Assembly: GCA_904386005.1 (NCBI GenBank)
Contig: CAJFKR010000004.1
Location: forward strand, 28,514 to 92,513
Direction: 5' to 3'
DNA length: 64,000 nt
Source: Candidatus Flemingiibacterium merdigallinarum
GTDB taxonomy: Bacteria > Bacillota > Clostridia > Oscillospirales > CAG-272
The notes under the pieces are model-generated. The model ran no database searches. It saw only the letters and a list, made by a program, of their open reading frames with translations, and was not told the DNA's origin. Every line of letters starts with the position of its first letter. Positions within the stretch are counted from its first letter, which is position 1. This document shows, piece by piece, positions 5,154 through 62,343 of this stretch. A program made the position numbers and the translations under genes.

Positions 5154-5270
5154 TTATTGTAGGATATCATAACAATAATGATAAATCCAACGTAAAACGA
5201 CCCTTTGACTTTGCTGTGCAAAGACGTCCGAATTTCGACAAGTGAAAGGTAGCTTTGCGTATGCAAAGTC

Positions 5271-7334
5271 ATGGATATAATAACTATGTATACTGAATTT
5301 CTGCCGCTCTCTCGCGCCGAAGCTGACGCGCGTGGGTGGGACCGCCCCGATTTCGTCTATGTCACCGGCGACGCGTATGTCGACCACCCGAGCTTCGGCG
5401 TCGCGATTATCTCGCGTGTCCTTGAAGCCGAGGGCTTCCGCGTCGCGATATTGTCGCAGCCCGACTACAAGTCCTGCGACGCCTTCCGCGAATACGGACG
5501 CCCGCGTCTCGGCTTTCTCGTCACCGCCGGAAATATCGACTCGATGGTCGCGCACTATACCGTATCGAAAAAACGCCGCTCGTACGATTACTACTCGCCC
5601 GGAGGCAGGATGGGACTGCGCCCCGACCGCGCGACTATCGTCTACTGCAACCGCATACGCGAAGCCTTCGGCGACGTGCCGATAATACTCGGCGGACTCG
5701 AAGCCTCGCTGCGCCGGCTCGCGCACTACGACTACTGGGACGACAAGGTGCGCCGCAGTATATTGGTAGACTCGCGCGCCGACTTACTCACCTACGGCAT
5801 GGGCGAGAATATCCTGCGCCGCGTCGCCGAGCTGCTCGACCGCGGCGTGCCGATAAAGAAGATACACGATGTGCGCGGCACGGTATATCTGACGAGCCGC
5901 GACGACAAGCCGCATTTCGACGTCGGCGGCGAATGGAATTATGACGACCTGAAAGCCGACTGTAAGCTCTACGCCGAGGCGTTCGGCGTGCAGTACAAGA
6001 ACACCGACGCTGTAACCGGCAAGGCGCTCGTCGAATACTATGACAATAAAATGCTCGTGCAGAACCCGCCGATGCCGCCGCTCGAGCGCGACGAGCTCGA
6101 CGCGGTCTACGCGCTCCCATATACCCGCCGTCCTCACCCGAGCTATGACAGCGTCGGCGGAGTTCCGGCTATAGCCGAGGTCGAGATGTCGATAACGCAC
6201 AACCGCGGCTGTTTCGGCGGCTGCAATTTCTGCGCACTGGCCTTTCATCAGGGCAGAACCGTGCGCTCGCGCTCGATCGAGTCGGTTGTCAATGAGGCGA
6301 AGCTCATCACCGAGTCGCCTAATTTCAAAGGCTACATCAACGACATCGGAGGTCCGACCGCGAATTTCCGCTATCCCGCCTGCGAGAAGCAGAAGACTCA
6401 GGGCGTCTGCGCAAACCGGAAGTGTCTCGCGCCGAAGCCCTGCCCGAATCTTATCGCCGACCATTCGGAATATATCGAGCTGCTCCGCCGCGTCGAGAGC
6501 CTGCCTAAAGTGAAAAAGGTGTTCATTCGTTCGGGCATACGCTTTGACTATATGCTCGCCGACAAGGATGAGAGCTTCTTCAAGAAGCTGGTGCGCGATC
6601 ATGTCAGCGGTCAATTAAAGGTCGCGCCCGAGCACTGCTCGAACGCGGTGTTATGCGAGATGGGCAAGCCGCCGATCGAGGTTTTCGAGCGGTTCAAGCG
6701 CCGTTTCTTTGAGCTTACTAAGAGCATCGGCAAGGAGCAGTACCTCGTCCCCTACCTGATGTCGAGCCACCCGGGCAGCCGGCTTTCCGACGCGGTCGAG
6801 CTGGCGGTATATCTCAAAAAATGGGGCTACTCTCCCGAACAGGTGCAGGACTTCTACCCGACTCCCGGCACGGCGTCGACGGTAATGTATTACACCGGAA
6901 TCGACCCTCTGACGATGAAGCCGGTTTACTGTGCGCACGATTATGAGGAAAAACGTATGCAGCGCGCGCTGTTACAGTACAGCCGTCCGGACAATGCCGA
7001 GCTTGTGCGCCGCGCGCTCGAGAAGTGTCACCGCACCGACCTCATCGGATATGGTCCCGACTGTCTTGCGAGGCCGCGCTCGGGTAACGGCGGCAGCAGA
7101 TCGCAGAGAGACGCGAAGTCGAACAAGGATGTAAAATCGCGCTCCGGTCAAAATCAGCCGTCATTGCGCGTGAGCAGAGAAGCGTCTGACCGCTCACGGA
7201 ATCGCGGTCACCAAAAAGACAGCGGCAGACCTATTACAAAGGGCGGACGCGCCGACAATAAATCTCAAGCGTTTTCCGGCAAGAAGGCTCAAGCATCCAA
7301 TGATAAGAACCGCGGCGGGTATCCTCACCGATAA
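5271..7334 (+). CDS. ygiQ: YgiQ-family (UPF0313) radical SAM protein; alternative start 5286
   Basis: VTGDAYVDHPSFG, CFGGCNFC (CxxxCxxC), DIGGPTAN, KVAPEH, QVQDFYPTP; basic low-complexity C-terminal tail. Confidence 0.93.
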   Translation: MDIITMYTEFLPLSRAEADARGWDRPDFVYVTGDAYVDHPSFGVAIISRVLEAEGFRVAILSQPDYKSCDAFREYGRPRLGFLVTAGNIDSMVAHYTVSKKRRSYDYYSPGGRMGLRPDRATIVYCNRIREAFGDVPIILGGLEASLRRLAHYDYWDDKVRRSILVDSRADLLTYGMGENILRRVAELLDRGVPIKKIHDVRGTVYLTSRDDKPHFDVGGEWNYDDLKADCKLYAEAFGVQYKNTDAVTGKALVEYYDNKMLVQNPPMPPLERDELDAVYALPYTRRPHPSYDSVGGVPAIAEVEMSITHNRGCFGGCNFCALAFHQGRTVRSRSIESVVNEAKLITESPNFKGYINDIGGPTANFRYPACEKQKTQGVCANRKCLAPKPCPNLIADHSEYIELLRRVESLPKVKKVFIRSGIRFDYMLADKDESFFKKLVRDHVSGQLKVAPEHCSNAVLCEMGKPPIEVFERFKRRFFELTKSIGKEQYLVPYLMSSHPGSRLSDAVELAVYLKKWGYSPEQVQDFYPTPGTASTVMYYTGIDPLTMKPVYCAHDYEEKRMQRALLQYSRPDNAELVRRALEKCHRTDLIGYGPDCLARPRSGNGGSRSQRDAKSNKDVKSRSGQNQPSLRVSREASDRSRNRGHQKDSGRPITKGGRADNKSQAFSGKKAQASNDKNRGGYPHR

Positions 7335-12215: not shown

Positions 12216-12302
12216 AAAATAATAACAGCGGATTGACCATATACGACAATGGAGCCGCGATTTGCGCGGCAAATAAACGACCACGCATACGATATGAGCT
12301 AA

Positions 12303-12383
12303 GTCTGAAAATAAATTTTCAGACACGAGTTTTGTGACTTCGCGGTCTTCAACCGCGATTTGCTTCGCAAACCGTCACAAAAC
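12303..12383. repeat. Intergenic palindromic element (hairpin plus three-way junction)
   Basis: GTCTGAAAAT/ATTTTCAGAC at 12303-12324. GTTTTGTGAC/GTCACAAAAC at 12329-12383 encloses TCGCGGT/ACCGCGA and TTTGC/GCAAA hairpins. Confidence 0.65.
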
Positions 12384-12467
12384 ATCGACATAGAAAGGTC
12401 CATATACGCAATAGTGTTTCGGCTGTATACGATACAAAACCACGATATACGCGATTGGAGACGGACA

Positions 12468-36324: not shown

Positions 36325-38328
36325 TCATTTGTGGTATTTTATAAACGCGTAGCCGCGTTTCTTGCCGAAATGAGCAGTTAAGGCGTCATTCTGGCAGTCG
36401 ATCTCGACCTTCGTATTTGACGCGAGCAGGTCGAGCTTCGCGCCCTGAGGAAGCGCGACATTGTAACTGTAGCTGTCGATGTCAGACGATTCGCGCAGGA
36501 GTATCAGATATCCGTCGCTCTCGCCGCAGCGCGCGTGGAAGCCGGTGTAGACAATGCCGTCGGGCTGCTCGCCTATCGGCAGGACGTCGGCTGTATACAG
36601 CTTGTCGCGCTCGATGCGCCAGAGGTGACAGATGTGCGAAAGCCGGTCGAGCTGCTCGTCCGACAGGTGCTGCATCTCCATCCAGATAAGCGGGTTCGCG
36701 ACCATGATCGAAGCGAACAGCCAGTCGATGTCGTAGTTTGCCGGAGCGAGCTCATCGCCCGGCGCGACCGACTCGTAGCGGTCGGCGTTGCGCTGATTGT
36801 TCAGTATCTCGAACTGGAACTTGCGGGTTGGAAAGAACTCGGACAGCATCCAGAGGTTCTTCAGCGTGGCGTGCGGGTAGTAGTTCATGAAGTCGGTGTA
36901 GCGGTTCTCGACGAATATCGTTCCGATTTCCTTCATCGCGAGGTAGCCGAGCCGGACGCCGGCGGTGATATCTATGTTGTAGCTGAGCTCACAGCCCGAC
37001 TTCTCGCGCGCAAGGCTCATGAAGCGACCGATATTGCGCTCGCCGAGCTTGTTTTTCAGTATCATTCCGTCGAGCTTGAACTGCTTTATGCCGTACTCGC
37101 GGCTGAGTGTGGCGAGCCTCTCCGCGTCGCGCTCGCAATTCTGATAGTCGCCCTCGCCGTCCGGACTGAACCAGAGCGCGAGCTCGAGGTTGTCGCTCAT
37201 CAGCGGCGCGAGACCTGACGGGAAGCGGTCGGGGTCGACGTCCCAGAAGCGCGGGTCGTTCTTGTAGTAGCCCTCCGACCAGATGCTGCCCTTCGGCTTC
37301 TGACGCGACGAGTTCGCGGTCACGCCCTTTTCCCAGCCGTCGTCGATCTGCATCACATCGACACCGATTTTGGTCGCCGCGTCGCGCTCACGGAGCATGA
37401 ATTCCTCACAGATCGCGGCGTCTCGGCTGCGGTCGCCCCAGGTGTTCGACATCGCGAACAGGCTGCCGCCGCCAAGGCAGACCTTCGCATACAGCCGCTT
37501 ATACAGGTTCGGCAGAGTCTTTGCCCTGCCGGTGCCGACAGTCGAGCCGTAGAGCGGCAGCTCAACGTCGCCGACCTCGTCGGTTCTGACGCCGCTGCCG
37601 CAGAGCCGGGCATATCCGCCGGCGCGCGAGCGGAGCTTCAGGTCGCGGCTGTGTCGATTGAGCTGTGACGAGATGCAGGGAGCTTCCTTGACAATGAGCA
37701 GCGCGTGGTCGGTTTGGTATTCGTCGAGAATGAACATCGAGCCGTCGAACGAATTCTCGCGGTGGTCGTAAATCAGCTCGCTGCCCCGACGGACAAGGCA
37801 GTCGTTGACGTCGGTCTGTTCAACGAATGTGATTGCGTCGACCCGTATATGCGGCGACGACAGGGTTAAGCAGTCGACCGTGTCGTCCTCGGGCAGCAGC
37901 TTATTTATCGCGGCGCGCTCGTCGCTCTCGATACCGCTCGGGCGCTCGTCCGGGGCTGTTTCGCCCGACGCGGTCGGCTTGCCGCTGACATAAAGCCGCG
38001 TGGTGACAAACGGCGAGCCGTCGTATACCTCGAAGCACTGCCTGATTTTCGCGGTCGGATTTGTATAGACAAGCTCGGCGGTGATATGCGGCGCGGACAG
38101 TCCATCGTTGTCGGAAACATACTGTCTGAACTCGACCGAAGCGGTCGCGAAGTCAAATCCGCAGACATTGAACATCGCGGTCGGGCAGTCGCTCTCCCAG
38201 CACTTGTTCGCGAGCTTGTCGAGGATATATTCGCTGTGCGGCAGCGCGCCGTCAAGTCTCACCGCGCGTTCGATTTGCTCATTGCCGACCTTGAGCAGAT
38301 TGTCTTTATAAATAGCGTAGGAATTCAT
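36325..38328 (-). CDS. Clan GH-D glycoside hydrolase (GH36/alpha-galactosidase-like)
   Basis: SNTWGD, QIDDGW, FPSGL, LWFSP, FKLDG nucleophile motif. Confidence 0.78.
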   Translation of the reverse strand: MNSYAIYKDNLLKVGNEQIERAVRLDGALPHSEYILDKLANKCWESDCPTAMFNVCGFDFATASVEFRQYVSDNDGLSAPHITAELVYTNPTAKIRQCFEVYDGSPFVTTRLYVSGKPTASGETAPDERPSGIESDERAAINKLLPEDDTVDCLTLSSPHIRVDAITFVEQTDVNDCLVRRGSELIYDHRENSFDGSMFILDEYQTDHALLIVKEAPCISSQLNRHSRDLKLRSRAGGYARLCGSGVRTDEVGDVELPLYGSTVGTGRAKTLPNLYKRLYAKVCLGGGSLFAMSNTWGDRSRDAAICEEFMLRERDAATKIGVDVMQIDDGWEKGVTANSSRQKPKGSIWSEGYYKNDPRFWDVDPDRFPSGLAPLMSDNLELALWFSPDGEGDYQNCERDAERLATLSREYGIKQFKLDGMILKNKLGERNIGRFMSLAREKSGCELSYNIDITAGVRLGYLAMKEIGTIFVENRYTDFMNYYPHATLKNLWMLSEFFPTRKFQFEILNNQRNADRYESVAPGDELAPANYDIDWLFASIMVANPLIWMEMQHLSDEQLDRLSHICHLWRIERDKLYTADVLPIGEQPDGIVYTGFHARCGESDGYLILLRESSDIDSYSYNVALPQGAKLDLLASNTKVEIDCQNDALTAHFGKKRGYAFIKYHK

Positions 38329-38652
38329 TTTTATTACCCTGACTTCGCGGCGGCGAAGTCTTCCTTTCCGTGTATAACGCCGCGATTCATGCGCGGGCTT
38401 GTTTTCGGATACAAACAGATATATGTTGATTTCAGTATAGCATATCACACGGGTAATGTCAAGCTTATATGTGAGATTTCGAAAGAATGGCGGATCGGCT
38501 GAAAGAATTGCGATGACGGTATGAATATCGCTTCCGTTAATTGGTTGTGACTTGCATATGTGATTACAAATACGCTTTCGGCTGAATTTGTGTCAAAATC
38601 CCAATAAACGGATATACTGCATAGTGAAAACACATATAAGGGGGCTTTGCCA

Positions 38653-41140: not shown

Positions 41141-44100
41141 TTATTTTTCGCCTTCATCGGCGATATAGCGAATCCCGAACGGCTCGTATTCGCTCTTCTC
41201 GATTATTTCGTAGCCGAGCCATTTGCCGTCGGTTGTCAGCGTGTAGGTGATTTTGTGCGACCTTATCAGCGCGTTGCATTCAGCCCAGAACTGAACCGTG
41301 ACCATGACCTCGTCGCCGTCGCGGTCGGCTGACACAACTTCCCAGCAGCTCTGATCGCCGTACTCACCCGACTGAATATATGTGATGCCGTCGCGCTCGT
41401 AGGTAAATGCGTCGACCCCGAGCGCGTCATAGTCGGTGCAGCCGAATTTTTCGGCGGCGAGCCGCTTGTATTCGTCGAGCGTCAGTCTAATGCCTCTTCC
41501 GTAGTAGTTGCACAGATAGTTGTGCATACCCGGGTAGGTTGTGCCCTCGCCGTAGGTCGGGCAGTTCCAGATAAACGTGCTCCAGATGAAGGTCTCGACC
41601 ATATCGACCGCTTCGGAAAGCGCCGGATCGTTTTCCCAGTCATGTGTTTCTTCGACCGGTTCGAAGTCATTCATCCAGCAGCAGGCGCCGTCAACCACCT
41701 GCTTGGAGTAGCTGCCGGGCGGCAGTGTATCGAGCCCCGACTCGCTGACCGTGAAGTCAAAAGTCATGTATAAATCCTCGCGCGTGTCGGTGAAGGTGAG
41801 CGCAAAATCAGGAATTATTACGCTGTTGTATTCGGGAAAAGAAACGCTTTTTCCGGACAGCAGATCATAGAAGAACTGGTAAGCGGTTTCGCTTATCAGC
41901 CCGCGGTCATACGCCGACTTTATCTCGGCTAGCGAGGTCGCGGTATGGGTCGAGCCATCGGACGGCGGGTAACCGTCGGGGTAAGAATACGAGAGCCGGA
42001 CAGCGTAGATTTCGCCGCGGGGAGACGCGAGGTAGTCCTCGCGCCAAGCGGCGAGTCCGGCGTCATAATCGATATCCGGGTTGTCGACAAAGCTTGTGTC
42101 GCCGATGTCGCCGAGCATGAGAACGTCGAGCTTTATTCCTTCGACGACTGTATACAGGTGCGCGCCGCCGTTCATGAATTCATAATCGCAGCTGTACCAC
42201 TCGATGCCCGAGCCGCAGTCGGAAATGTCGCTGCCGATAGTCAGACCGAACACGCTGTCGACTCCGGGATAATCAGCGTTTATCATGACCTCATTCGGGA
42301 TGTAATTGTCGTCAGGCGGCGTGTCCATGTCGAGTCCGTGAAAGACGAGCAGCACTCCCGGGAATCCCGCGATCGAATATACCGGCTGCCCGGGTCCGTG
42401 CTCCGAATACTCGAGCTTGAGCCCGCCGTACCGTCCGCGTATCTCCCCGACCGTAGCCGACAGAAGGTCGATGAGCTTCTGCTCTATTGTCGTCGGATAA
42501 TCGTCGTCGCCGGCAATCGCGAGCCGCAGTTGTATAATTTTACCGAGCGGCTGCTTGCGGTATTCCTCGCCCCAGCCGGACAGCCAGAGACCGTATACAT
42601 CGCCGTTTCCGATGTCGGGCGGAGACGCGCCAGAATCGGTCATTTTCGCGGTGAGCCTGACGCCGTCGACGACGGTTGACACGTTCGCGATTCCGGTGGT
42701 GAATGTAAAGCCGGTGTGATACCATTCGTACAGATCATAGTCGTCGATCTCTGTGCCGAGCTTCAGCCCGTACAGGCTGTCGATGCTCGCATTGTCAGTG
42801 CCGATATCCGAGTTGTCAATGTCGATCATCACCTCGTCGGGATATCTGTCGTCGTCGGGCGGTGTGTCCATATCAAGGCTGTGAAATACTATCAGCGCGC
42901 CGGGAAATCCCGAGATCGAATATACCGGCTGTCCGGGTCCGTTCTCCGAATACTCGAGCGTGAGCTCGCCGTACCTTTCGCGTATCTCGGCGACTGTCAT
43001 ATACAAAAGCTCGGTCAGGCTTTTGTCATAATCGCTGGCTGGATCGGACGAGTCGGCGTTCGAGGTATCGGCTTGATTCTGATTTTCTGAAATTGTCGTT
43101 GTATCCGAATACGCCTGGTCGGTCTCGCAGGCAAACGATGCTCCCGCGATCAGACAGACTGCCAGTGCCGCGGTCATGACCGCAAGCCCTCGCTTTTTTG
43201 CTGTGTTATCCATAATATTGATAAACCTTTCCTTTACCGCTGTACGGCGCGGATTGAAATGGGTCGTCAGTGTCGACGGCATATCGCCGCAGCCGCGGAT
43301 GATTTCGAGCAGTACTCGCCCGTATGAGCCGCGCGCTTCGTTGTCAAGACCGGCGAGCAGCTCCTCGTCACAGGCGAGCTCTATCGTCTGTGACGACTGC
43401 CTTGACGCGAAATGCACTATCGGATTAAACCAGTGCAGCGAGCAGGCGACAACGCCTATGAGCTTGATCCAAAGGTCATGCCGCTTGTAGTGTATCAGCT
43501 CGTGACCGAGTATTCCGACCGCGGAGTTGTCGCTTATATCGAGCACCGGCAGTAATATTTTCGGCTTGACGAAGCCGCAGAGCATAGGACTGTGTATGCA
43601 GCCGCACACATACAGCTCGGGAGGACGGCGTATGCCGAAGCGCTCGCACAGCCGCAGATAGAGCGTCTGCCGCTCGCTTTCGACCGGATAACATCCGCGC
43701 GACAGCTTTTTCTGCATGACGACGCAGCCGATAAGCTCATACGACAGGCAGCCGACCGCTCCGGCCGCCCAGCCGACAAAAATTATACTGCAGATCAATG
43801 TAAAAGCGTCCGGCGAAATCAGTATATCGCGCGGCGTATCGCTGTCAGCTCTGCTGTCAGCTCTGCTGTCAGCAGCTAGGTCGGCTTTGCCGCCGGAGGT
43901 GCCGACGCTGTTCGGCTGGGAGCTTGTGTCTTGCGGCGGGGCGGTCGGCAGGCTGACAATACCCGAAATCGAGCTGTCCGAGACTGCCGGCTCGACCGCG
44001 GATATGTCAGACTCGGAGTCCGTATCTGCCGTATGCGGAATTTGGAACGTCACGATCGACGGCAGCAGCTCGAACGGCAGGCAGAGACAGACTATCACCG

Positions 44101-44230
44101 CAGCCCAGACGAACCTGCGGCAGCTCTGCGAATATCTTTGTCTTGACAGGCGTAGAAAAAGATATATCAGTAATATCGCCGCCGACAGGACGGCGGACTT
44201 TAGAAAATAGGACAATATGAATTCGGTCAT
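41141..44230 (-). CDS. BlaR1/MecR1-type M56 metallopeptidase signal transducer with a large non-PBP extracellular region
   Basis: SPMLCGFVKPKILLP, GHELIHYKRHD, HWFNP, ELACDE, KERF; C-terminal duplicated ~170-aa domain. Confidence 0.9.
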   Translation of the reverse strand: MTEFILSYFLKSAVLSAAILLIYLFLRLSRQRYSQSCRRFVWAAVIVCLCLPFELLPSIVTFQIPHTADTDSESDISAVEPAVSDSSISGIVSLPTAPPQDTSSQPNSVGTSGGKADLAADSRADSRADSDTPRDILISPDAFTLICSIIFVGWAAGAVGCLSYELIGCVVMQKKLSRGCYPVESERQTLYLRLCERFGIRRPPELYVCGCIHSPMLCGFVKPKILLPVLDISDNSAVGILGHELIHYKRHDLWIKLIGVVACSLHWFNPIVHFASRQSSQTIELACDEELLAGLDNEARGSYGRVLLEIIRGCGDMPSTLTTHFNPRRTAVKERFINIMDNTAKKRGLAVMTAALAVCLIAGASFACETDQAYSDTTTISENQNQADTSNADSSDPASDYDKSLTELLYMTVAEIRERYGELTLEYSENGPGQPVYSISGFPGALIVFHSLDMDTPPDDDRYPDEVMIDIDNSDIGTDNASIDSLYGLKLGTEIDDYDLYEWYHTGFTFTTGIANVSTVVDGVRLTAKMTDSGASPPDIGNGDVYGLWLSGWGEEYRKQPLGKIIQLRLAIAGDDDYPTTIEQKLIDLLSATVGEIRGRYGGLKLEYSEHGPGQPVYSIAGFPGVLLVFHGLDMDTPPDDNYIPNEVMINADYPGVDSVFGLTIGSDISDCGSGIEWYSCDYEFMNGGAHLYTVVEGIKLDVLMLGDIGDTSFVDNPDIDYDAGLAAWREDYLASPRGEIYAVRLSYSYPDGYPPSDGSTHTATSLAEIKSAYDRGLISETAYQFFYDLLSGKSVSFPEYNSVIIPDFALTFTDTREDLYMTFDFTVSESGLDTLPPGSYSKQVVDGACCWMNDFEPVEETHDWENDPALSEAVDMVETFIWSTFIWNCPTYGEGTTYPGMHNYLCNYYGRGIRLTLDEYKRLAAEKFGCTDYDALGVDAFTYERDGITYIQSGEYGDQSCWEVVSADRDGDEVMVTVQFWAECNALIRSHKITYTLTTDGKWLGYEIIEKSEYEPFGIRYIADEGEK

Positions 44231-44344
44231 ATTAAATCACCTCGGAACAGTGGACAGGGAAAGGGTTATCGAGCTGTGTATACGCACTAGCATATATGCT
44301 TTTGCATAACACACTTGCGTATACATTATAATCATAATCGCGGC

Positions 44345-44725
44345 TTACTTTCCGCGGCGGATTATCTCCTCGAGCTCGGCGATGTCGTCGTCCGAGATTT
44401 TGCCGGTGTCGACGAGGTTCGCGATCAGATTCTGCCAGCGTCCCGAAAACAGCTTCGAAATGAATCCGTCCGACGCGCTGCCGCAGTACTCATCGCGCGT
44501 GACGAGCGGCGACACGAGCTTATATGGCACCGGCGCGTCGACATTCTCGATTTTGACGTATCCTTTTTCACACAGTCGGTCGACGAGGATATGCACCGCC
44601 GCCTTGCTGCATTTGCGGCGGCTTTGCATAGCGCGGTGTATATCGGCTATAGTCGACGGGCAGTCAAGCTCCCACAGCGCGAGCATGACGTCGAGCTCCG
44701 AGTCGGGCAATTCTTTTCTTTTCAT
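44345..44725 (-). CDS. BlaI/MecI/CopY-family repressor
   Basis: LPDSELDVMLALW...RLCEKGYV...ISDDDIAELEEII; adjacent to the M56 gene. Confidence 0.9.
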   Translation of the reverse strand: MKRKELPDSELDVMLALWELDCPSTIADIHRAMQSRRKCSKAAVHILVDRLCEKGYVKIENVDAPVPYKLVSPLVTRDEYCGSASDGFISKLFSGRWQNLIANLVDTGKISDDDIAELEEIIRRGK

Positions 44726-44842
44726 TGTACTTTGCTCCCTTATGAATTTCCACGCGAAGGTCTGAAAATGGATTCTGACTATGCTGGCTTCCGATAGCGT
44801 GGATTGAAACATGATATCAACTTATGTATATAACAATAAACA

Positions 44843-44880
44843 ACTGTATACAGTATAGCACAAAAATTCCCAACTGTCAA
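44843..44880 (-). promoter_or_regulatory. Promoter of blaI-M56 with overlapping palindromic operator
   Basis: TTGACA (44880-44875), 17 nt, TATACT (44857-44852) with extended TG; palindrome ACTGTATACAGT at 44843-44854. Confidence 0.65.
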
Positions 44881-45240
44881 TAGGTCGGACTGAATTGTCA
44901 GAAATTTCTGCGTCGGTTGTGATAAGATAAACTTGAATTCGATAGTAATTCTCATTATTAAATAAATCAACAAGCGTATCGCGGTGACAAACCAAAATAT
45001 CCACGAACCGGCGTTATTCTTCGCGTTCTCCCCAGATAAATAGAATAAAAATGAGTGTGAAGTCCCGCGATGACCGCGCATAACGCGGAGGCGAAAAATT
45101 TTTTTGCGATTTTCACAATAACTATTGCAAAATCCGCGAATATGATTTATAATATAGTCATGTACTACGAAAACAGGTCGGGCGGTCGTCCGGCGTGGCT
45201 TCGTTTGCATACTTTACATATACACGGAGGATAACTCAAA

Positions 45241-46404
45241 ATGGCTGATGAAGTATTGAGCCAATTTCAGCAGGCTGCCGCTGAAAAGGAAATCGACGCC
45301 ACAAAGAAGCTGAAGGTTGGTATCATTGGTACAGGTTGGATCGCAGAATCCCACATTCAGCAGTATAACGTAATGCCTGACGTTGAGGTTGTAGCTATGG
45401 CTGACCTCATCCCCGGCAAGGCAGAGGCTTTCAAGGAAAAGTGGGGCGTCAAGGGCGACGTTCACTTCTATCCCGATCACAAGTCGATGATCGACAACGA
45501 GGAGCTTGACGCGGTCAGCGTCTGCACCTACAACGCAACTCACGCGGAGTGCACAATCTACGCTCTTGAGCATGGTATCAACGTCCTGCTTGAAAAGCCG
45601 ATGTGCGTAACTCTCGACGAAGCAGCTGAAATCGTAAAGGCAGAGAAGAAGAGCGGAAAGATTCTTTCCATCGGCTTCCAGCCGAGATACGACGCCAATA
45701 TGCAGATGATCAAGAAGATCGTTGAGTCGGGCACTCTCGGCGAGATCTACTACATCCAGACCGGCGGCGGACGCCGTCGCGGCATTCCGAACTCGACCTT
45801 CATCGAGAAGAGAACCGCCGGAATCGGCGCGCTCGGCGATATCGGCTGCTACTCGCTCGATATGGTGCTGAACGCTATCGGCTATCCGACTCCGAAGACC
45901 ATCTCGGCTTACAAGTCGAACTTCTTCGGCACGAGCACCGAATATCAGTCCGAATACGACGCTAAGCGCTTCGACGTCGACGACTTCGCAGCCGCTTTCA
46001 TTCGCCTTGAGCCGGGCAAGTACGGCGACAAGGACGGCATAATCCTCGACTTCAGAATCGCTTGGGCTATGCACGTCGACACCCCTGGTGACACGATAAT
46101 CTTCGGTAAGAAGGCAGCTCTGCGCATTCCGTCCACCGACTGCTGGAACGGCTCGGTCGGCGGTCCGATGAAGATTTACCACGACATCGCGGGCGCAAGA
46201 GTCGAGACTGTTGTTCCGATCATTCAGAACAAGGGTCAGGGTCTGTTCTACAAGAAGGTTCGCTCCTTCCTCGACGCTATCAAGACCGGCGGCACCTCGC
46301 CCGTTCCGTCCAGCCAGATCATCAAGAATCAGGCTATCCTCGACGGTATCGTAAGATCGGCAGAGGCAGGCAAGGAAGTCGACATCGTTATGCCTGAGGT
46401 CTGA
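45241..46404 (+). CDS. Gfo/Idh/MocA oxidoreductase
   Basis: IIGTGWIA, LLEKPM, GALGDIGCY; strong codon bias; GGAGG SD. Confidence 0.92.
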   Translation: MADEVLSQFQQAAAEKEIDATKKLKVGIIGTGWIAESHIQQYNVMPDVEVVAMADLIPGKAEAFKEKWGVKGDVHFYPDHKSMIDNEELDAVSVCTYNATHAECTIYALEHGINVLLEKPMCVTLDEAAEIVKAEKKSGKILSIGFQPRYDANMQMIKKIVESGTLGEIYYIQTGGGRRRGIPNSTFIEKRTAGIGALGDIGCYSLDMVLNAIGYPTPKTISAYKSNFFGTSTEYQSEYDAKRFDVDDFAAAFIRLEPGKYGDKDGIILDFRIAWAMHVDTPGDTIIFGKKAALRIPSTDCWNGSVGGPMKIYHDIAGARVETVVPIIQNKGQGLFYKKVRSFLDAIKTGGTSPVPSSQIIKNQAILDGIVRSAEAGKEVDIVMPEV

Positions 46405-46463
46405 GCATACGGCTCGACATACTGAGCATACGACTCGACATTGAGCGTACAGCTTGATTTTGA
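46401..46463 (+). repeat. 19-21-bp tandem repeat starting at the stop codon
   Basis: TGAGCATACGGCTCGACATAC TGAGCATACGACTCGACAT TGAGCGTACAGCTTGATTT TGA. Confidence 0.8.
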
Positions 46464-46470
46464 TTTATCG

Positions 46471-46503
46471 AACAATTCCCTGCTTTGCGGGGAATTGTTT
46501 TTT
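46471..46503 (+). terminator. Intrinsic terminator
   Basis: AACAATTCCCTGC-TTT-GCGGGGAATTGTT plus T-run. Confidence 0.8.
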
Positions 46504-46673
46504 GCTCGCGTCAATTAGCACAAAACGAATCGGCGGTAATTGGTCACCTCGCATATTTACAGCCGCGGATCGATGTGATATAATCATATATGAAATGATG
46601 TGACAAAGTCACAAATATGAAATTATGTGATATAGGCACATATTATTTATACTGATTGCGTGAGGTGAATTGA

Positions 46674-47285
46674 TTGGAAAATGTAAAGCCCGAAAAGCTG
46701 CTCACAGCCTGCGCGGCACTTGGCTTTGTACTGCTCGTGCTGCTTGTCGGCGTCAATGTCATGGCACGGAGGGCGGCGCGCGCCTTTGACGAGACGGTCG
46801 AAGCCGAGAGAAGCGAGTATATGGTCTCCGGGATTTTCGGCGACTTTGTTTATAACGGGGATGAGCTGACCGAATATTACGGCGACGGCGGCGACATCGT
46901 CTTTGACGAGAGCATCTACGGCTTGACGGCGGATGACATCACGATATGCACCGGAGCGTTCAACCAGTACCGGCTGAACGAATATGGCATCGAGCCCGAG
47001 ACTGTCTATCTCGGAAACGCGGTCACACGAATCGAGGATCGCGCGTTCTACGCGACGACCGCCGAGGAGATACGCCTGCCCGCCGGACTCACGTATATCG
47101 GCGCGGAGGCGTTCGCCGACTCGCCGAATTTGAAGCGGGTATACTTCGACTGGCCGACGACGGGTGACCTGATGATTCACTCGGACGCGTTCAAGGGATC
47201 AGTGAATGTTGAATTGGTGAATTTTCCGGACGGGATTGTATTTGACGAGAACATGGTCATATTCGGGGGAGGTGACATCGGATGA
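46674..47285 (+). CDS. Membrane-anchored leucine-rich-repeat (LRR_5/BspA-type) protein
   Basis: N-terminal TM; VTRIEDRAF, LPAGLTYIGAEAF, IHSDAF repeats; GAGGTG SD. Confidence 0.82.
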   Translation: MENVKPEKLLTACAALGFVLLVLLVGVNVMARRAARAFDETVEAERSEYMVSGIFGDFVYNGDELTEYYGDGGDIVFDESIYGLTADDITICTGAFNQYRLNEYGIEPETVYLGNAVTRIEDRAFYATTAEEIRLPAGLTYIGAEAFADSPNLKRVYFDWPTTGDLMIHSDAFKGSVNVELVNFPDGIVFDENMVIFGGGDIG

Positions 47286-47854
47286 AGCCGGACAGAATCG
47301 CGATTTTGGCAATAGTGAATCTCGCGCTGGCTGTTATGCTGCTTGTCGCGGGAATATTTACCTACAACAGTATTGACCGGCTGTGCGGCATCGCCGAATA
47401 CGACCTTTACGATATAACCGACTATTCGTACATAGTACCGACCGAAGCCGAGGGCTTGATGGTCACAAATTACCTCTCATACGGCGGCGACCTCGAGATT
47501 CGCTATGGCGCGACCGCTATCGGCGCGGGGGTGTTCAACGGCGTGCGCCTATTAAATCAGGCGAATCCGCAGGTAATTGACAGCATTTATCTGTCCGACG
47601 GCGTAAAAGTCATTGAGAGCAGTGCGTTTTTCGGCACGCAGGCCAAGTGGGTGCGGCTGCCGAGCGACGTCACGTATATCGGAGACCTCGCGTTTGCCGA
47701 AGCGTATTCGCTCGAGCGGGTCTATTTCGACGAGGTTCCCGACCACCACATCGAGATTTCGCCGACGGCGTTCGCCTATCTCGAGGGAGTCGAGTTTGTG
47801 AATTTTCCGGATTACATTGTGTTCGGCGAGGACAATTTAGTCAGTTATAAATAG
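47282..47854 (+). CDS. Membrane-anchored LRR_5 protein (paralog of the preceding gene)
   Basis: TAIGAGVF, VKVIESSAF, LPSDVTYIGDLAF; shared C-terminus RVYFD...VNFPD.IVF. Confidence 0.82.
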   Translation: MKPDRIAILAIVNLALAVMLLVAGIFTYNSIDRLCGIAEYDLYDITDYSYIVPTEAEGLMVTNYLSYGGDLEIRYGATAIGAGVFNGVRLLNQANPQVIDSIYLSDGVKVIESSAFFGTQAKWVRLPSDVTYIGDLAFAEAYSLERVYFDEVPDHHIEISPTAFAYLEGVEFVNFPDYIVFGEDNLVSYK

Positions 47855-47864
47855 GAGGCTGAAA

Positions 47865-48077
47865 GTGGGTTCTATTTCAAGCATACTGAGAATAATTATC
47901 ATGGAGCTGATACTGCTTGCGGTATTTTTGGTTTGCGGTGCTTTTGTCATGATAATTCTTGACAATATGTTCGCAATCAAGATGGAAAACACGGTCGGAC
48001 GGGGAGTCATAATAGGCTTCATTTCATGGATTGTGTTTTCGGTGATTCTGTGGATTTATGTGATTCGGTCAAAATAA
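47865..48077 (+). CDS. Small two-TM membrane protein
   Basis: AGGAGG SD, two hydrophobic helices, followed by terminator hairpins. Confidence 0.65.
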   Translation: MGSISSILRIIIMELILLAVFLVCGAFVMIILDNMFAIKMENTVGRGVIIGFISWIVFSVILWIYVIRSK

Positions 48078-48085
48078 GCATCAGA

Positions 48086-48150
48086 GCGCATAAAGGCGTG
48101 TGTTTCCTGCCTTTATGCGCACATAACCGCCGGCGAAGCCGGCGGTTATG
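48086..48150. terminator. Tandem hairpins / bidirectional terminator
   Basis: GCGCATAAAGGC/GCCTTTATGCGC and CATAACCGCCGGC-GAA-GCCGGCGGTTATG. Confidence 0.7.
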
Positions 48151-48931
48151 ATTCAATCGGCTTCGCCGTTATCTGCACCCACGCCGGCTTGAACCCCGAC
48201 GCGAGCGCGCAGCGCACGCTGCGCACATTCGACCACGCCGCGCAGTAGAACGGCACCTTGCCGAGCTTGATTATCTCCTGCGCGAGCAGAGTGACGATAG
48301 TCTTCGCGATACCGCACCGCCGGTATTCGGGAAGCACGTCGATTCCGATCTGGTACATACTGTCGCAGTCGGCGCTGCACGCGGCAAGTCCTATCAGTCT
48401 ATTTCCGTCATACGCGCCGACTCCGAGCGTGTCGAGCTCGGCGCGGTGCGCGCAGAGCGCGTTCGACCATTCGGGCGTGTAGAGCGGCGCGAAGTCGGAT
48501 TTATACAGCAGCCGTGTCTCAAAGCCGCGGCTATTGCCGAGATTTATTCCGCGTTCATTGCGTTGTGCCGCGCGCTCAAGCTCTTGAATGTCCGGCAGGA
48601 AGTATTCAGCCATATGTAATATATGGTGTCCATATTTTGCCAGCTCGCGGTTCAGCTCGTATATCGCCGGCGTCTCGAAGCAGTGGCAAAAGTCGTCACG
48701 AGATATGAATTTTGCCGCGAAGTCCAAAATCTCGGGCGATCCGGACGCGACGATGTTGCCGCCGTAGGACGTGAGGTCTAAAAAGAACGGCAGCTTCAGA
48801 TATCGACGGGCGTCGGGATGCGGTCGCGACTCGACTGTGACCGGCTCGGATTTCGTAAAGTCGTCAGGTGCGCAGCCCGAGTCGATTGCCGACTGCGCCA
48901 TCGCGGTTTTTAATATGTATTCGTTTGTCAT
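48146..48931 (-). CDS. GNAT-family N-acetyltransferase
   Basis: QIGIDVLPEYRRCGIA acetyl-CoA motif, WSNVRS...GF; GAGG SD before ATG 48931. Confidence 0.88.
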   Translation of the reverse strand: MTNEYILKTAMAQSAIDSGCAPDDFTKSEPVTVESRPHPDARRYLKLPFFLDLTSYGGNIVASGSPEILDFAAKFISRDDFCHCFETPAIYELNRELAKYGHHILHMAEYFLPDIQELERAAQRNERGINLGNSRGFETRLLYKSDFAPLYTPEWSNALCAHRAELDTLGVGAYDGNRLIGLAACSADCDSMYQIGIDVLPEYRRCGIAKTIVTLLAQEIIKLGKVPFYCAAWSNVRSVRCALASGFKPAWVQITAKPIES

Positions 48932-49038
48932 GTGGGTTAACCTCATCGTAATAAATGCGCAGGATTGCGGAATATATTTGTTGACACCTCGGTCAGAATT
49001 GTGATACAATAATACTAAAGGCAAGATCGCGTCGGTGC

Positions 49039-49134
49039 TGTCTATGGGATGTACGATTTCATGGCGATACTGTCTATGGTATGGACAATTTCATGTCAAT
49101 GGTGTCTATTGTATACGCAGTATCACGACCGATT
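49039..49134. repeat. Three degenerate 32-bp tandem units overlapping the AraC stop
   Basis: TGTCTAT recurs at 49039, 49071 and 49103, with T(T/A)TCA in register. Confidence 0.7.
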
Positions 49135-50001: not shown

Positions 50002-50121
50002 ATCCCGCCGCTCCTTTGCTTGTGCTACAGTTTATTATACAATATTTACAACGCCACGTCAAGTCTAAAATATATTTTCATGCCGCCGTGGTGAAAACCA
50101 TGCGCGGACAGAAAGGAAGAA

Positions 50122-53026: not shown

Positions 53027-53068
53027 CAGTCCCCGCAGAACGACAGCAAAAGCAGGCTTAAATATAAG

Positions 53069-53975: not shown

Positions 53976-54034
53976 AATAAAATCTCCCTGTTTATGTTGA
54001 TATCATGAATATCGACCGAAACAGGGAGATTTAT

Positions 54035-58425: not shown

Positions 58426-59088
58426 TCATTTTGTAATACGGTCAATATCGGCGTTTTCACCGAGCAGCGCGACCGTTTCCTCGCCCGAGAAGGGCTTGGA
58501 CGGGTCGGGGGAGATATCCATGCCGGTGACCGGGTCGTTGACGGCGAGAACGGTAACTCCGAGCTTGCGTCTGACGTCGAGCTCGGCGAGCGATTTGCCA
58601 ATCCAGTTTTCGGGAACCGGAATTTCGACTATCGAATGCCGGTCGGAGAATTCGATATATTCAAGCACATTGTTGCGGTCGAGTATGCCGACCAGCTTTT
58701 CGCCCATGTCGCGCTCGGGGAAGACCACCATGTCAACCCCTAATTTTTCAAGCACGCGGCCGTGCTGGTCGCTGGCAGCGCGGGCTACTATCTGTCCCAC
58801 GCCAAGATCCTTTAGGTTTATTGTGGTCAGCACGCTGTCGGACAGGCGGGACGCTGTGGCGATAACTGCGCAGTCGTATTCGTGAACGCCGGCAGCACGC
58901 AGCACGGCGTCATTGGTGGGGTCGCCCACCACGGCGTTTGTGACGATATCGCTGAGCGCGGTGACCAGATTGTCGTCGGGATCGATTACCAGAACCTGAT
59001 GTCCGGTTCGGGCGAGATTTGTCGCCAGAGTCTGACCGAAGCGGTCAAGACCGATGATAACGAATGAACGTGATTTGCTTTTTTTCAT
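58426..59088 (-). CDS. ktrA: Ktr/Trk potassium uptake RCK subunit
   Basis: IIGLDRFG (GxGRFG variant), VFPERDMG, TrkA_C domain. Confidence 0.88.
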   Translation of the reverse strand: MKKSKSRSFVIIGLDRFGQTLATNLARTGHQVLVIDPDDNLVTALSDIVTNAVVGDPTNDAVLRAAGVHEYDCAVIATASRLSDSVLTTINLKDLGVGQIVARAASDQHGRVLEKLGVDMVVFPERDMGEKLVGILDRNNVLEYIEFSDRHSIVEIPVPENWIGKSLAELDVRRKLGVTVLAVNDPVTGMDISPDPSKPFSGEETVALLGENADIDRITK

Positions 59089-59156
59089 TGTATATAACCT
59101 GACTTTGTATCAAAGTCTGCCTTTCTTAAAAATGAGCCCTGACAATAGAGCCCGGG

Positions 59157-61783: not shown

Positions 61784-62272
61784 TTAAAGCGGCTTTTCGT
61801 AATACAGCACCAGCTCGTCGTCCTCTATATCCCAGCGGACCAGCCGCGTATAGCCCCAGTGCAGATAGATCGCGAGATTGCGCGTCTCCTTGGCCTCGAC
61901 GCCGATAGTTATGCGCTCATATCCGAGCGACCTCGCGTGCGCCTCGATCATACGCACAAGCCGCGAGATGTGGTGCTGACCCTCGTATTGCTTGTCGATT
62001 CGCAGCGCGTTGACGTTGGCGACCGAATGCCCGTCGGCGATCTCGGGGCGACCAATCGCCGCGCCGCACTCGGGAGACTGTATAAGCGTGCCCTCTCCGA
62101 CCGGTATCCCGTCGGCGGCGACTATAAATGTAGTCGCCATCTGCTTTTCGTTATAGCCGATGTATATGTCCCGCCAAATCGGCCAGCGCGGGTCGCCGGG
62201 ATTGTCGGCGATATTCTTTTCCCAGATGAGCTTCAGCTCGTTCATGTCTGCGATTTTATAATCAAATTTCAT
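61784..62272 (-). CDS. GNAT-family N-acetyltransferase
   Basis: ALRIDKQYEGQH, IGVE...NLAIYLHWGY; most plausible start MKFDYK at 62272. Confidence 0.82.
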   Translation of the reverse strand: MKFDYKIADMNELKLIWEKNIADNPGDPRWPIWRDIYIGYNEKQMATTFIVAADGIPVGEGTLIQSPECGAAIGRPEIADGHSVANVNALRIDKQYEGQHHISRLVRMIEAHARSLGYERITIGVEAKETRNLAIYLHWGYTRLVRWDIEDDELVLYYEKPL

Positions 62273-62343
62273 ATATGAACACGACTTTGCAAGGGCAAAG
62301 TCTACCTCCCTCATGTTAATGTCACCAAACTCGCAGGCTGTTA

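Follow-up and report, generated by a model that had tools for sequence, protein, structure and literature searches.

A hairpin between Shine-Dalgarno sequence and start codon belongs to a small dispersed repeat, a candidate portable ribosome-binding site, in Candidatus Flemingiibacterium merdigallinarum

The window analysed here is a 64,000-nucleotide stretch of the Candidatus Flemingiibacterium merdigallinarum genome (GCA_904386005.1, contig CAJFKR010000004.1, positions 28,514 to 92,513). Four of its genes, ygiQ, ktrA, a GNAT gene and a 667-aa ORF, carry a hairpin between the Shine-Dalgarno sequence (SD) and the start codon. The initial annotation had aligned these four 5' regions, and all four sites read as it described (Table 1). 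Its gene names agree with Pfam for ygiQ (Radical_SAM_N and DUF3362), KtrA (TrkA_N/C) and GNAT, but the ORF that it called GH36-like has no Pfam match at E<=0.001; by BLASTP it is weakly similar (E 3e-4, one comparison) to a protein of the melibiase family encoded in the same genome. For the pattern GACTTYG-N1-8-CRAAGTC the window has 3 matches where 0.02 would be expected, and none of 100 shuffles reached 3. This pattern misses the ygiQ copy, where one base is absent.

Table 1. Copies of the repeat element and a related hairpin in the 64-kb window
Feature	Position	Strand	Parts	Basis
Second, weaker hairpin, CTTTGC-TGT-GCAAAG, built on the same half-site and some 30 nt upstream of the ygiQ module	5209..5223	+
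Solo ribosome-binding-site (RBS) module before ygiQ (radical SAM)	5244..5288	+	SD GAAAGG 5244-5249; hairpin 5252-5269 (7 bp, loop GTAT); ATG 5271-5273 right behind the hairpin; second in-frame ATG 5286-5288	sequence
Leader-only copy of the element family	12302..12399	+		99% identity over 98 nt to a copy on another contig (C47)
Solo RBS module before the 667-aa ORF (weakly melibiase-like; "GH36-like")	38326..38369	-	SD GGAAAGG 38369-38363; AA; hairpin 38360-38341 (8 bp, loop CGCC); tail AGGGTAATAAAA 38340-38329; ATG 38328-38326	sequence and pattern match
Solo RBS module in the trkH-ktrA intercistronic gap	59086..59125	-	SD GAAAGG 59125-59120; CA; hairpin 59117-59101 (7 bp, loop ATA); tail AGGTTATATACA 59100-59089; ATG 59088-59086	sequence, pattern, Pfam
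Solo RBS module between an AraC-family gene and the GNAT gene	62270..62310	-	SD GGGAGG 62310-62305; TA; hairpin 62302-62283 (8 bp, loop CCTT); tail GTGTTCATAT 62282-62273; ATG 62272-62270	sequence, pattern, Pfam

Folded alone, the hairpins of the GH36-like, GNAT, ygiQ and ktrA copies reach -11.3, -9.2, -8.0 and -5.2 kcal/mol, respectively, and the weaker hairpin upstream of ygiQ reaches -5.1 kcal/mol (z -1.5). When flanking sequence was included, the hairpin was part of the MFE structure in two of the four window copies (ktrA and GNAT) and in 4/4 full leaders. It was missing from the context MFE of the ygiQ copy, and in the 76-nt context of the GH36-like copy a competing helix joins the upstream UCGCGGCG to the 3' half of the hairpin. 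These two failures, with a weak z of -1.1, count against the reading that we prefer below. The leader-only copy contains a 5' hairpin (GTCTGAAAATAAATTTTCAGAC) and a long-range helix around two hairpins, and ends in ...CATCGACATAGAAAGGT. It has no SD-proximal hairpin and no adjacent start codon; the nearest gene, of the uridine-kinase family (Pfam PRK), starts at 12468. The ktrA and GNAT copies are old, and the leader copy at 12302 is young.

The genome is a 153-contig MAG of 3.5 Mb with 94% completeness, in which repeats and IS elements may be missing. A profile search of it found 88 oriented copies on more than 50 contigs. The four sites first noticed are therefore real but are a small part of about 88, and the hairpin, taken at first for the element itself, is only the 3' module of a larger multi-hairpin element of about 150 nt. 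The module consists, 5' to 3', of (A)GAAAGG, 2 nt, the hairpin GACTTYGC-N4-GCRAAGTC (8-bp stem, 4-nt loop), ATGGTCATA, 3 nt and the ATG of an ORF. This unit makes up the solo form of about 45 nt, whose stretch between the loop-bearing stem and the last 3 nt before the AUG reads AUGGUCAUA. The full form of about 150 nt adds an upstream leader of about 100 nt with four hairpins, in which a 5' hairpin is followed by a long-range helix enclosing two further hairpins. Among 80 copies, 23 are full, 29 intermediate and 21 solo, and 7 are cut by contig ends; the 3' end is fixed and the 5' extent variable. Four copies that are identical upstream part immediately 3' of ATGGTCATA. Leaders lacking the SD-proximal hairpin have the arrangement AAAGG(A)-ATGGTNAT...ATG, and many other copies have hairpin units duplicated or in tandem. 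In diverged copies the stems look better preserved than the tails, a comparison biased by a search profile that the hairpin dominates. A coupling ORF ending at the TAA of GGTCATAA was rejected, since the frame is open for only 0-77 codons and has no conserved start; in this genome the preceding stop lies mostly 11-33 codons back. The resemblance of UCAUAA to the tRNA-Met anticodon loop and a GUCAUG/CAUGAC mini-stem were seen in the ATC variant only and dropped as coincidence.

The genome-wide scan revealed the bias of orientation and position that the initial annotation had proposed to look for: the element always lies in sense orientation, mostly at one offset before the ATG. With a pattern for the hairpin only, 79 matches were found in the whole genome. 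An ATG at +6 to +17 opening an ORF of at least 100 aa was present on exactly one side in 44 of the 79 and on both sides in none; in 35 of the 79 such an ATG stood at exactly +12. An SD-like motif lay within 3 nt upstream of the hairpin in 37 of the 44 one-sided matches. By the profile, an ATG at +12 opens an ORF of 100 aa or more in 49 of the 88 copies, a count that is partly circular because the profile includes the tail, whereas the hairpin-only count is free of this circularity. The same copies read on the opposite strand gave 0/88, and random positions gave 70/20000. An ORF of at least 50 aa follows 73 of the 88 copies, and the hairpin-to-ATG offset is 12 nt in 51 of these 73. Directly 3' of the hairpin, the codon is ATG in 60/88 copies and AGG in 7/88, so that the earlier idea of a canonical SD cut in two and rejoining as AAAGG|AGG holds for few. 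Further upstream, 20/34 leaders have an SD-like motif in the 14 nt that precede the 5' hairpin, compared with 3/33 in a control window and 639/5000 among random 14-mers.

The pairing of the predicted stem gives a hint at the RNA level. In 35 aligned copies, 98.2% of stem cells are paired, a value that none of 500 shuffles reached. The compensatory change reported from the four genes recurs at columns 13-22 of this alignment (C-G in 25, U-A in 7, U-G in 3). It is a single covarying pair within this genome; the stem is otherwise largely conserved in sequence, and most of its variety lies between species. Isolated hairpins fold at -5.2 to -11.6 kcal/mol with z of -4.3 to -6.4, and full elements with z of -4.9 to -6.7. 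The three-way-junction stems of the leader show strong covariation between species. For these junction hairpins we relied on single-sequence folds, since MAFFT with RNAalifold on 19 leaders misaligned the variable middle and did not recover them.

SD pairing was taken from the anti-SD tails of Bacillota, the 16S rRNA 3' end being absent from the assembly. AAAGG is the commonest SD pentamer in this genome and lies 8-12 nt from the ATG. The SD of the module is 34 nt from the ATG of the gene and 22 nt from the first ATG in linear distance, which is outside this working range. Looping out of 20 nt would leave 14 nt, and hairpin-less copies have 13-14 nt.

The genes behind the element do not form a coherent set of the kind expected for a cis-regulatory RNA family. 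When 60 downstream proteins were scanned with Pfam, 46 had matches, and these fell into unrelated families, including RelA/SpoT, RecG, LigA, HisS, TruB, MnmA, DapB, ProC, Pdf and SpoIIIAC as well as a HaeIII restriction enzyme, transporters and glycosidases. Copies also occur inside operons, for example before ktrA and truB. An integron attC or gene cassette array, with short cassettes in tandem at one locus, does not fit the dispersal of the copies, which stand before housekeeping genes on more than 50 contigs.

The element is absent from corresponding sites in relatives. Orthologs of ktrA, hisS, ligA and truB there have plain RBSs such as GAAAGGA-N10-12-ATG. Among 11 same-genus ktrA orthologs, one has a module of its own stem type and the rest are hairpin-less, several with plain GAAAGG-N8-13-ATG. 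The truB gene shares an overlapping stop and start with its neighbour in relatives, and here a full element stands between the two genes. Within the species, the module precedes a gene on a metagenome contig (L125), and the copy of this gene in the present genome has GGAGGGCAACT-ATG (contig C45 of G000, ATG 20247-20245, minus strand), with 99.2% identity downstream. These filled and empty sites favour an insertion origin, one of the possibilities raised at the outset. Two observations count against it: L125 begins inside the element, so that the left junction of the sole polymorphic site lies beyond it, and no polymorphism was seen at the ktrA and GNAT copies in the DNA strains X10 and X12 at 97-99% identity. 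In the part of the window from 44001 to 64000, where four sequencing runs were compared, the ktrA copy is gap-free in two other strains and the GNAT copy is gap-free in other strains. The X5 contigs end at 58916 and resume at 59175, around the ktrA copy, and RNA contigs (X15) cover parts of ktrA and trkH with none across a hairpin. Hairpin units of 21-22 nt differ between strains. In the present assembly a contig start truncates the 5' side of seven copies, and further contigs end within the leader part; metagenome contigs span four of these breaks.

Other species of the genus hold few copies. The strict stem pattern has 42 matches here and only 4 matches, in 2 of 24 same-genus species searched. 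With a looser pattern, 13 of 31 further species in the genus have 1-4 matches each, 12 of them with a hairpin by eye. Stems are species-specific yet complementary (ACTTTTGC/GCAAAAGT, ACTTTCGC/GCGAAAGT, GACCTG/CAGGTC). Matches in 300 other genomes of the order were all chance-like and had no hairpin. A scan of all GTDB species gave 27 matches at 25 loci in 17 assemblies, all of them uncultured gut Clostridia. Several genera have kept the tail GTCATGGTCATAA and the entire architecture, and an identical 36-nt module is common to five species. Such conservation across genera could reflect a host function rather than selfish spread. Against the 1-4 copies of other species in the genus, the present genome has undergone a burst to about 88, some of them near-identical.

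No mobilising enzyme was found in this genome. The Y1 transposase (PF01797) has 0 matches in this incomplete MAG (G000); it occurs in 7/32 genus genomes, unrelated to the element, and is absent from the element-bearing G012 and G016, also incomplete MAGs. Neither a Y1 transposase nor a RAYT is associated with the element in these genomes, and a retroelement origin found no support, the sole reverse transcriptase being a Drt2-like defence enzyme. Like REP/REPIN or IS200/IS605-derived elements, the element has a subterminal hairpin on both sides, namely the 5' hairpin on the left and the SD-proximal hairpin 9 nt short of the right end, and no inverted repeats. By eye, its left terminus (GTCTGAAAA...) does not resemble the right one read as reverse complement (TATGACCATGAC...). 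No target-site duplication was seen by eye, and TA is present on both flanks in only 3-4/34 leaders. As to earlier descriptions, the initial annotation had not recognised the motif and suggested comparison with Rfam. The window has 0 Rfam matches at gathering score, ten full leaders have two chance-level matches only (E 0.56, 0.68), and the literature searched holds no description of such an element, in agreement with that view.

We consider it somewhat better than even that this is a "portable RBS" element, non-autonomous and spreading at the DNA level, with a right end that comes to lie some 3 nt ahead of start codons. Of the origins first proposed, a tiny SD-targeting insertion element is best supported, by some 88 copies before unrelated genes. 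In this model, the hairpin would be the start-codon-proximal module of a small non-coding repeat family whose members multiply and get lost as DNA. Each insertion would be in the sense direction and put the right end some 3 nt ahead of the start codon, and a full-length element would often strand the former SD of the gene just upstream. In the mRNA the element would provide a working SD, and the hairpin, at -5 to -12 kcal/mol, would loop out 20 of the 34 nt between this SD and the AUG of the gene. The 14 nt left after loop-out equal the hairpin-less spacing, and initiation should therefore still work. From the geometry, such a loop-out restoring SD spacing, also proposed at the outset, is the likeliest consequence of the hairpin in mRNA. 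The AUG directly 3' of the hairpin, 22 nt from the SD, in frame and present in 60 of the 88 copies, may serve as an extra start but would be dispensable.

The conservation of the module may instead reflect control. As the initial annotation also proposed, the hairpin could be the site of an RNA-binding regulator. Together with the adjoining GUCAUGGUCAUAA it could bind an RNA-binding protein or small RNA by which about 90 genes are co-regulated; as a host-serving translational operator or leader, the elements would be retained, perhaps recruited, for this purpose. The sequence conservation of the stem, not of structure alone, points in this direction, with ACTTYGC common to all types and a tail invariant across the 17 assemblies and several genera. 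So do a total AAAGG-to-ATG length of 42 nt in most types, a same-gene module kept by two species (L149, L155), and stem mismatches that favour G.U on the sense strand (30, versus 13 A.C). The same hairpin also occurs in non-RBS hairpin arrays (17/79 hairpin-only matches), which could titrate a binder. However, the downstream genes share no function, and copy number ranges from 1-4 to about 88 between species of one genus. Loops vary freely (36 variants among 88 copies), tails decay in old solo copies, those of the window included (AGGGTAATAA, AGGTTATATA, GTGTTCATAT), and no candidate binder was identified. On balance we regard such an operator as rather unlikely.

Two other regulatory readings fare less well. 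The first is a switch, riboswitch-like or thermosensing. In it, UUUUGUGAC, which is the 5' strand of the long-range helix, would pair either with GUCACAAAAC, leaving the RBS open, or with GGUCAUAA before the start codon, closing it, while the SD-proximal hairpin would serve as a structural spacer. The UUGUGACU:GGUCAUAA helix is predicted by RNAalifold from 19 leaders of 9 species, with 8 pairs kept in most rows, single-sequence MFEs are split (G000 and G012 open; G002 and G016 closed, AUG included), and the interspecific covariation of the three-way junction would suit a switch. Solo copies, including all four of the window, nevertheless keep hairpin and tail without the partner strand. The alternative helix shows no two-sided covariation because the tail is invariant, and the normal helix is much stronger in G000 (13 bp). 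With no conserved unpaired sequence for a ligand pocket, no common gene function and no Rfam match, a switch appears improbable. The 8-4-8 palindrome could also be read in DNA, as an operator whose dimeric transcription factor would act on many genes as a roadblock. The palindrome is perfect over 20 bp, with conserved half-sites around a free centre, and has the form of such a site, but its position is fixed to the nucleotide relative to SD and ATG, not to promoters, and it is found inside operons too. Furthermore, the site is embedded in a larger set of covarying hairpins, its stem changes between species are paired substitutions, and its mismatches are biased to G.U on the sense strand, all of which make a DNA operator very improbable.

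The portable-RBS reading can be extended to a more specific and more doubtful proposal, which we hold only tentatively. The element may be a hitherto undescribed kind of mobile or installable "portable translation-initiation region" that homes to the last few nucleotides before start codons, stranding the old SD and supplying an SD-hairpin-spacer unit whose fold hides its 20-nt bulk from the ribosome. Its mechanism might read the RBS or start codon via a new recombinase or nuclease, or by copying from a donor in which the 3' end is fixed and the 5' extent varies, and the host may have co-opted it to standardise or co-regulate the translation of some 3% of genes.

If the model is true, this bacterium tolerates or exploits a stable 8-bp hairpin in the SD-AUG gap at about 90 genes, among them the essential ligA, hisS, relA and pdf. 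To our knowledge, split RBSs have so far been isolated phage curiosities. The copies would then offer a natural, replicated test bed for the accommodation of structure inside the SD-AUG spacer by the 30S subunit, and whole ribosome-binding sites, besides promoters, would be movable between genes as cassettes. A sharp question would follow, namely what puts a DNA element 3 nt before start codons. Annotation is affected as well. At these genes callers will mis-set starts, misled by a second in-frame ATG 12 nt upstream, and assemblers break contigs at copies.

The element is related to two known kinds of sequence, small repeat elements and split RBSs. A GAAAGG-type SD far from the start codon is known from STAB-SD of Bacillus thuringiensis cryIIIA, which binds the 30S subunit and stabilises mRNA from about 125 nt upstream without driving initiation; here, in contrast, the start codon has no SD nearby other than the distant one. 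Hairpin units about 20-27 nt long, nested or in tandem and gained or lost between strains, are a feature shared with the SDR repeats and the in-frame palindromic elements of Rickettsia. We know of no small-repeat family specialised for the gap between SD and start codon or supplying a split RBS.

MITE-type repeats such as Correia and ERIC, which alter expression, are likewise small, non-autonomous and co-transcribed with genes (PMC3575422). Terminal inverted repeats and TA duplication were not seen here, unlike in MITE-type elements, whereas the dispersal and the presence/absence polymorphism by which MITEs are recognised were found (88 copies, L125 versus C45, empty ortholog sites). Putative mobile promoters are also highly similar non-coding upstream sequences before unrelated genes of one genome, but they are defined on -150 to -50 and are untied to the start codon (PMC3575422). 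The present element reaches to about 3 nt before the ATG, carries an SD but no apparent promoter and occurs inside operons too. REP/REPIN sequences with their RAYT genes (PMC3116915, which also names the very small dispersed repeats, SDR, of cyanobacteria) are similar in being short, abundant, palindromic, hairpin-forming within-genome families with tandem clusters and lineage-specific sequence. REPINs are inverted doublets mostly outside RBSs and accompanied by a RAYT (Y1) gene, while the hairpins here are single or in direct tandem, locked in sense in the SD-AUG gap of a genome with no Y1 gene. The closest mechanistic parallel is the split RBS of T4 genes 38 and 25, where a hairpin shortens the distance between SD and AUG to 5 nt (from 22) and 11 nt (from 27), respectively (PMC3014915). 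There too a stable hairpin separates an SD from an AUG that is too far in linear distance (in T4, 22 and 27 nt; here, 34 nt to the AUG of the gene and 22 nt to the first one), and the stem is conserved among close relatives only (PMC3014915). The translational effect was shown in T4 and is predicted here, and the T4 sites are single loci that evolved in place, whereas here the hairpin travels with a repeat element and stands before about 88 genes.

The initial annotation had aligned a hairpin between the Shine-Dalgarno (SD) sequence and the start codon of four unrelated genes. All four sites were re-read and carry the sequences it gave, the ygiQ copy having a 5' arm short by one base, and the hairpin pattern has three matches in the window where 0.02 would be expected. 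The genes behind the copies are ygiQ, ktrA (TrkA-type, following trkH), a GNAT gene preceded by an AraC gene, and a GH36-like 667-aa ORF which has a weak melibiase-like motif and no Pfam match. The ktrA and GNAT copies lie in gaps separating same-strand genes. No Rfam family matched within the window at gathering score.

Positions of the element copies and of neighboring or related features (G000, genome of the window)
Feature	Location	Strand	Remark
ygiQ copy	window 5244-5288	+	ATGs at 5271 and 5286
GH36-like copy	window 38326-38369	-	
ktrA copy	window 59086-59125	-	
GNAT copy	window 62270-62310	-	
Leader without SD-proximal hairpin	window 12302-12399		upstream of uridine-kinase-family gene
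Flanks of that leader	window 12230-12460		repeated CCATATACG / ATACGATA motifs on either side
Methionine-gamma-lyase-family gene (PF06838) segment	window 55260-56690		1.43 kb; TTAGTTATTAG-type tandem repeats at both borders
Solo module abutting full leader	L079 (G044:C242:4403-4788)		
Strain-variable hairpin in leader	G000 C1:119775		22 nt, perfect
Second-context arrays	G000 C22:11246-11544; C10:38330-38460; C40:18478-18590; C1:106906		21-nt hairpin unit at C1:106906 differs between strains
Drt2-like antiviral reverse transcriptase	G000 C147:2363-3537 (L158:1108-2280)		383.5 bits against cut-off of 390; ORF runs past contig end
Insertions in L115, other strain only	against G000 C1:236519-243957		258-330 nt; long perfect palindrome CTGGGGGAGGTGCCTTTTGAAAAAGGCACCTCCCCCAG inside

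The observation was much extended by searching the whole genome (3.49 Mb in 153 contigs, 53% G+C; the window is part of contig C4). A profile derived from 41 copies recovered 88 oriented copies at E≤0.01, with the consensus (A)GAAAGG-NA-GACTTYGC-N4-GCRAAGTC-ATGGTCATAANN-ATG. An ORF of at least 50 aa follows 73 of them, and in 51 of these 73 its ATG stands exactly 12 nt from the hairpin end; the reading frame is open from the codon after the hairpin in 59. That codon is ATG in 60 of the 88 copies, GTG in 5, TTG in 4, AGG in 7 and ATA in 6. Since the profile includes the tail, the placement count was repeated on the 79 matches of the hairpin-only pattern GACTTYG-N-CRAAGTC. In 44 of these matches exactly one side has an ATG, at +6 to +17, from which an ORF of at least 100 aa runs; in none do both sides have one. 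For 37 of the 44, an SD-like motif precedes the hairpin by no more than 3 nt. The ATG is at +12 in 35 of the 79 matches, compared with 70 of 20000 random positions and 0 of 88 on the opposite strand of the profile copies (ORF of at least 100 aa throughout). The random placement or orientation that the initial annotation wished to see checked by a genome scan is clearly not the case.

The downstream genes have little in common. Pfam matches were obtained for 46 of 60 downstream proteins and the families are unrelated: RelA/SpoT, RecG, NAD-ligase, HisRS, TruB, MnmA, DapB, ProC, peptide deformylase, SpoIIIAC/AD, SbcC, a HaeIII-type restriction enzyme, MatE and ABC transporters, kinases and glycosidases. 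Many module-bearing genes, ygiQ among them, have two in-frame ATGs 12-15 nt apart, on which automatic gene callers will disagree. A further 17 of the 79 hairpin-only matches occur in a second context, as ACAT-GACTTTGCC-N4-GGCAAAGTC-ATGT within arrays of differing short GC-rich hairpins joined by GAGAGTGGTCTC linkers. Start codons are not adjacent to these arrays, one of which has a 49-nt unit in three tandem copies.

The hairpin proves to be the final module of a larger element: in many copies, about 100 nt more are shared upstream of the SD. This leader begins with a 5' hairpin, GTCTGAAAATAAATTTTCAGAC, followed by a long-range helix, GTTTTGTGAC...GTCACAAAAC, around two hairpins (CGCGGTC/GACCGCG and TTTGC/GCAAA), and then by a linker, ATCGACATA, the SD, the SD-proximal hairpin and the tail. 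Folds of full copies from four species have the same architecture (z -6.1, -6.7, -4.9 and -6.2). Measured against one full copy, homology starts from the 5' hairpin in 23 of the 80 copies that reach the 3' end, at an intermediate position in 29, and at or after the SD in 21, the solo form to which the four window copies belong; contig ends cut the other 7. Several contigs start or stop within the element, and four such breaks are bridged by metagenome contigs of the same species.

Other copies have the leader and lack the SD-proximal hairpin. One on contig C3 ends AAAAGGA and continues directly into ATGGTAATTAATATG, one at mnmA of the relative G002 reads AAGAAAGG-ATGGTCATCAAAAATG, and one lies in the window (see table), where the flanking motifs may be an operator-like or target repeat. 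These copies show that the hairpin is a 20-22-nt unit placed between the SD and ATGGTC; in them the SD-to-ATG distance is 13-14 nt. Hairpin units are in tandem duplicate in some copies. In L079, a locus from another genome, a solo SD-hairpin-ATGGTCATAA module runs directly into the 5' hairpin of a full leader, so these copies are nested or in tandem.

Comparison of orthologs and strains suggests movement as DNA. The module precedes ktrA in only 1 of 11 same-genus orthologs read (G002, with its own stem type); the other 10 have no hairpin and several read GAAAGG-N8-13-ATG. Three relatives have GAAAGGA-N10-12-ATG at hisS, against a partial leader plus hairpin in G000, and four relatives lack the element at ligA. 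At truB, the ATG overlaps with the stop codon of the preceding gene in the two closest-aligning relatives (G012 and G002), and the other two orthologs read are also without the element; in G000 a full element stands precisely at the junction of the two genes, and its 5' hairpin supplies the TGA that now ends the upstream ORF. Within the species, metagenome contig L125 reads ...ACATCGACTTAGAAAGGTA-hairpin-ATGGTCATAAAT-ATGAAAAAATAT, and the matching site on G000 contig C45 reads GGAGGGCAACT-ATGAAAAAATAT, the following 600 nt being 99.2% identical. Two smaller hairpin differences between strains are tabulated. Separately, strains X10 and X12 have 19 letters of the TTAGTTATTAG-type repeat in place of the methionine-gamma-lyase segment, whose two borders show many loose ends, and the insertions in metagenome contig L115 look like another MITE-like family.

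In four copies with identical upstream sequence, the sequences part right after ATGGTCATA, and the alleles at the L125/C45 site differ all the way to the ATG. An SD-like motif lies within 14 nt upstream of the 5' hairpin in 20 of 34 leaders (control window, 3 of 33; random 14-mers, 639 of 5000). By eye, these motifs are 4-8 nt from the element, about 3 nt under the usual SD-ATG spacing of the genome. From this we infer that the element would insert about 3 nt ahead of the start codon and leave the gene's former SD stranded upstream. Such a targeting mechanism, if real, would be new.

Of the pentamers that precede long G000 ORFs, AAAGG is the most frequent, with a spacing peak at 8-12 nt. A side peak at 22 nt in the first-ATG ORF scan is due to the module, in which the ATG after the hairpin is in frame with the gene's ATG; the SD is 22 nt from the former and 34 nt from the latter. 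The ATG after the hairpin is missing from 19 of the 88 copies, three of the window's four among them, so the gene's own ATG must function alone. Looping out the hairpin gives an SD-ATG distance of 14 nt, matching the hairpin-less copies, and would hold the SD functionally near the start codon. The isolated hairpins fold at -11.6 (consensus), -11.3 (GH36-like), -9.2 (GNAT), -8.0 (ygiQ) and -5.2 kcal/mol (ktrA). However, when the GH36-like and ygiQ copies are folded in contexts of 76 and 72 nt, the hairpin is missing from the minimum free energy (MFE) structures (z only -1.1). Pairing holds in 98.2% of stem cells over 35 aligned copies, and the compensatory stem change noticed earlier was borne out at one covarying pair (C-G 25, U-A 7, U-G 3); 0 of 500 shuffles match the observed pairing or covariation. 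Among 64 distinct stems, the sense-strand mismatches are 30 G.U and 13 A.C, a modest hint that it may be the transcript structure which matters.

The strict stem pattern has 42 matches in G000; among 24 same-genus species it has 3 in G012 and 1 in G023. In the genus, 13 of the 31 other species have 1-4 matches each to an SD plus tail pattern (reversed-pattern control, 0-1 per genome), and by eye 12 of the 13 have the hairpin. The stems are species-specific and still complementary: ACTTTTGC-TAC-GCAAAAGT in five species, ACTTTCGC-TTC-GCGAAAGT in two, and GACCTG/CAGGTC and GATCTGC/GCAGGTC in one. The relatives' leaders likewise keep the architecture with a different stem sequence in every helix. 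Among 300 further genomes of the order, scattered matches occurred in only 12, none with the hairpin. A scan of GTDB (one genome per species) for GAAAGG-N17-22-GTCATGGTCATAANNATG gave 27 matches at 25 loci in 17 assemblies, 8 of them in one assembly; by their record titles, all the assemblies belong to uncultured gut Clostridia of animals or humans, and several to Candidatus Flemingiibacterium. Two of these species (L149 and L155) have the module ahead of the same gene (N-terminus MNYNVKLS) with different leader architecture, apparently an old copy maintained in position. Near-identical DNA is present in chicken-gut metagenome runs from several studies.

On balance, we lean towards a non-autonomous "portable RBS" element which spreads at the DNA level and whose hairpin would maintain functional proximity between SD and start codon. 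The main rival is an operator that would serve the host by attracting a hypothetical binder; the invariance of the tail and half-site across genera speaks for it, and we consider it unlikely. Less likely still, the full leaders could act as a switch with closed and open forms. This reading is kept alive by RNAalifold on 19 leaders, where GGUCAUAA, ahead of the start codon, pairs with the long-range helix's 5' strand, UUGUGACU, and by leader MFEs, which are closed in G002 and G016 and open in G000 and G012; a switch is inapplicable to the solo copies of the window.

As to the class of the element, neither the window copies nor the full leaders match an Rfam family, no inverted terminal repeats were seen, and no link to a Y1 transposase/RAYT was found. 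A test for a conserved upstream ORF spoke against one, and the element is not a cassette array. Nor was there support for a retroelement origin, the sole reverse transcriptase of G000 being Drt2-like.

Such an element was not found described in the main texts of the literature. Cyanobacterial small dispersed repeats and Rickettsia palindromic elements are among the nearest genome objects. REP/REPIN repeats (PMC3116915) and putative mobile promoters (PMC3575422) also belong here. None of these four is known to be specialised for the gap between SD and start or to bear a split RBS. In its proposed mechanism, the element comes closest to the split RBS of T4 genes 38 and 25, where a hairpin shortens the spacing of 22 nt to 5 nt in the former and that of 27 nt to 11 nt in the latter (PMC3014915).
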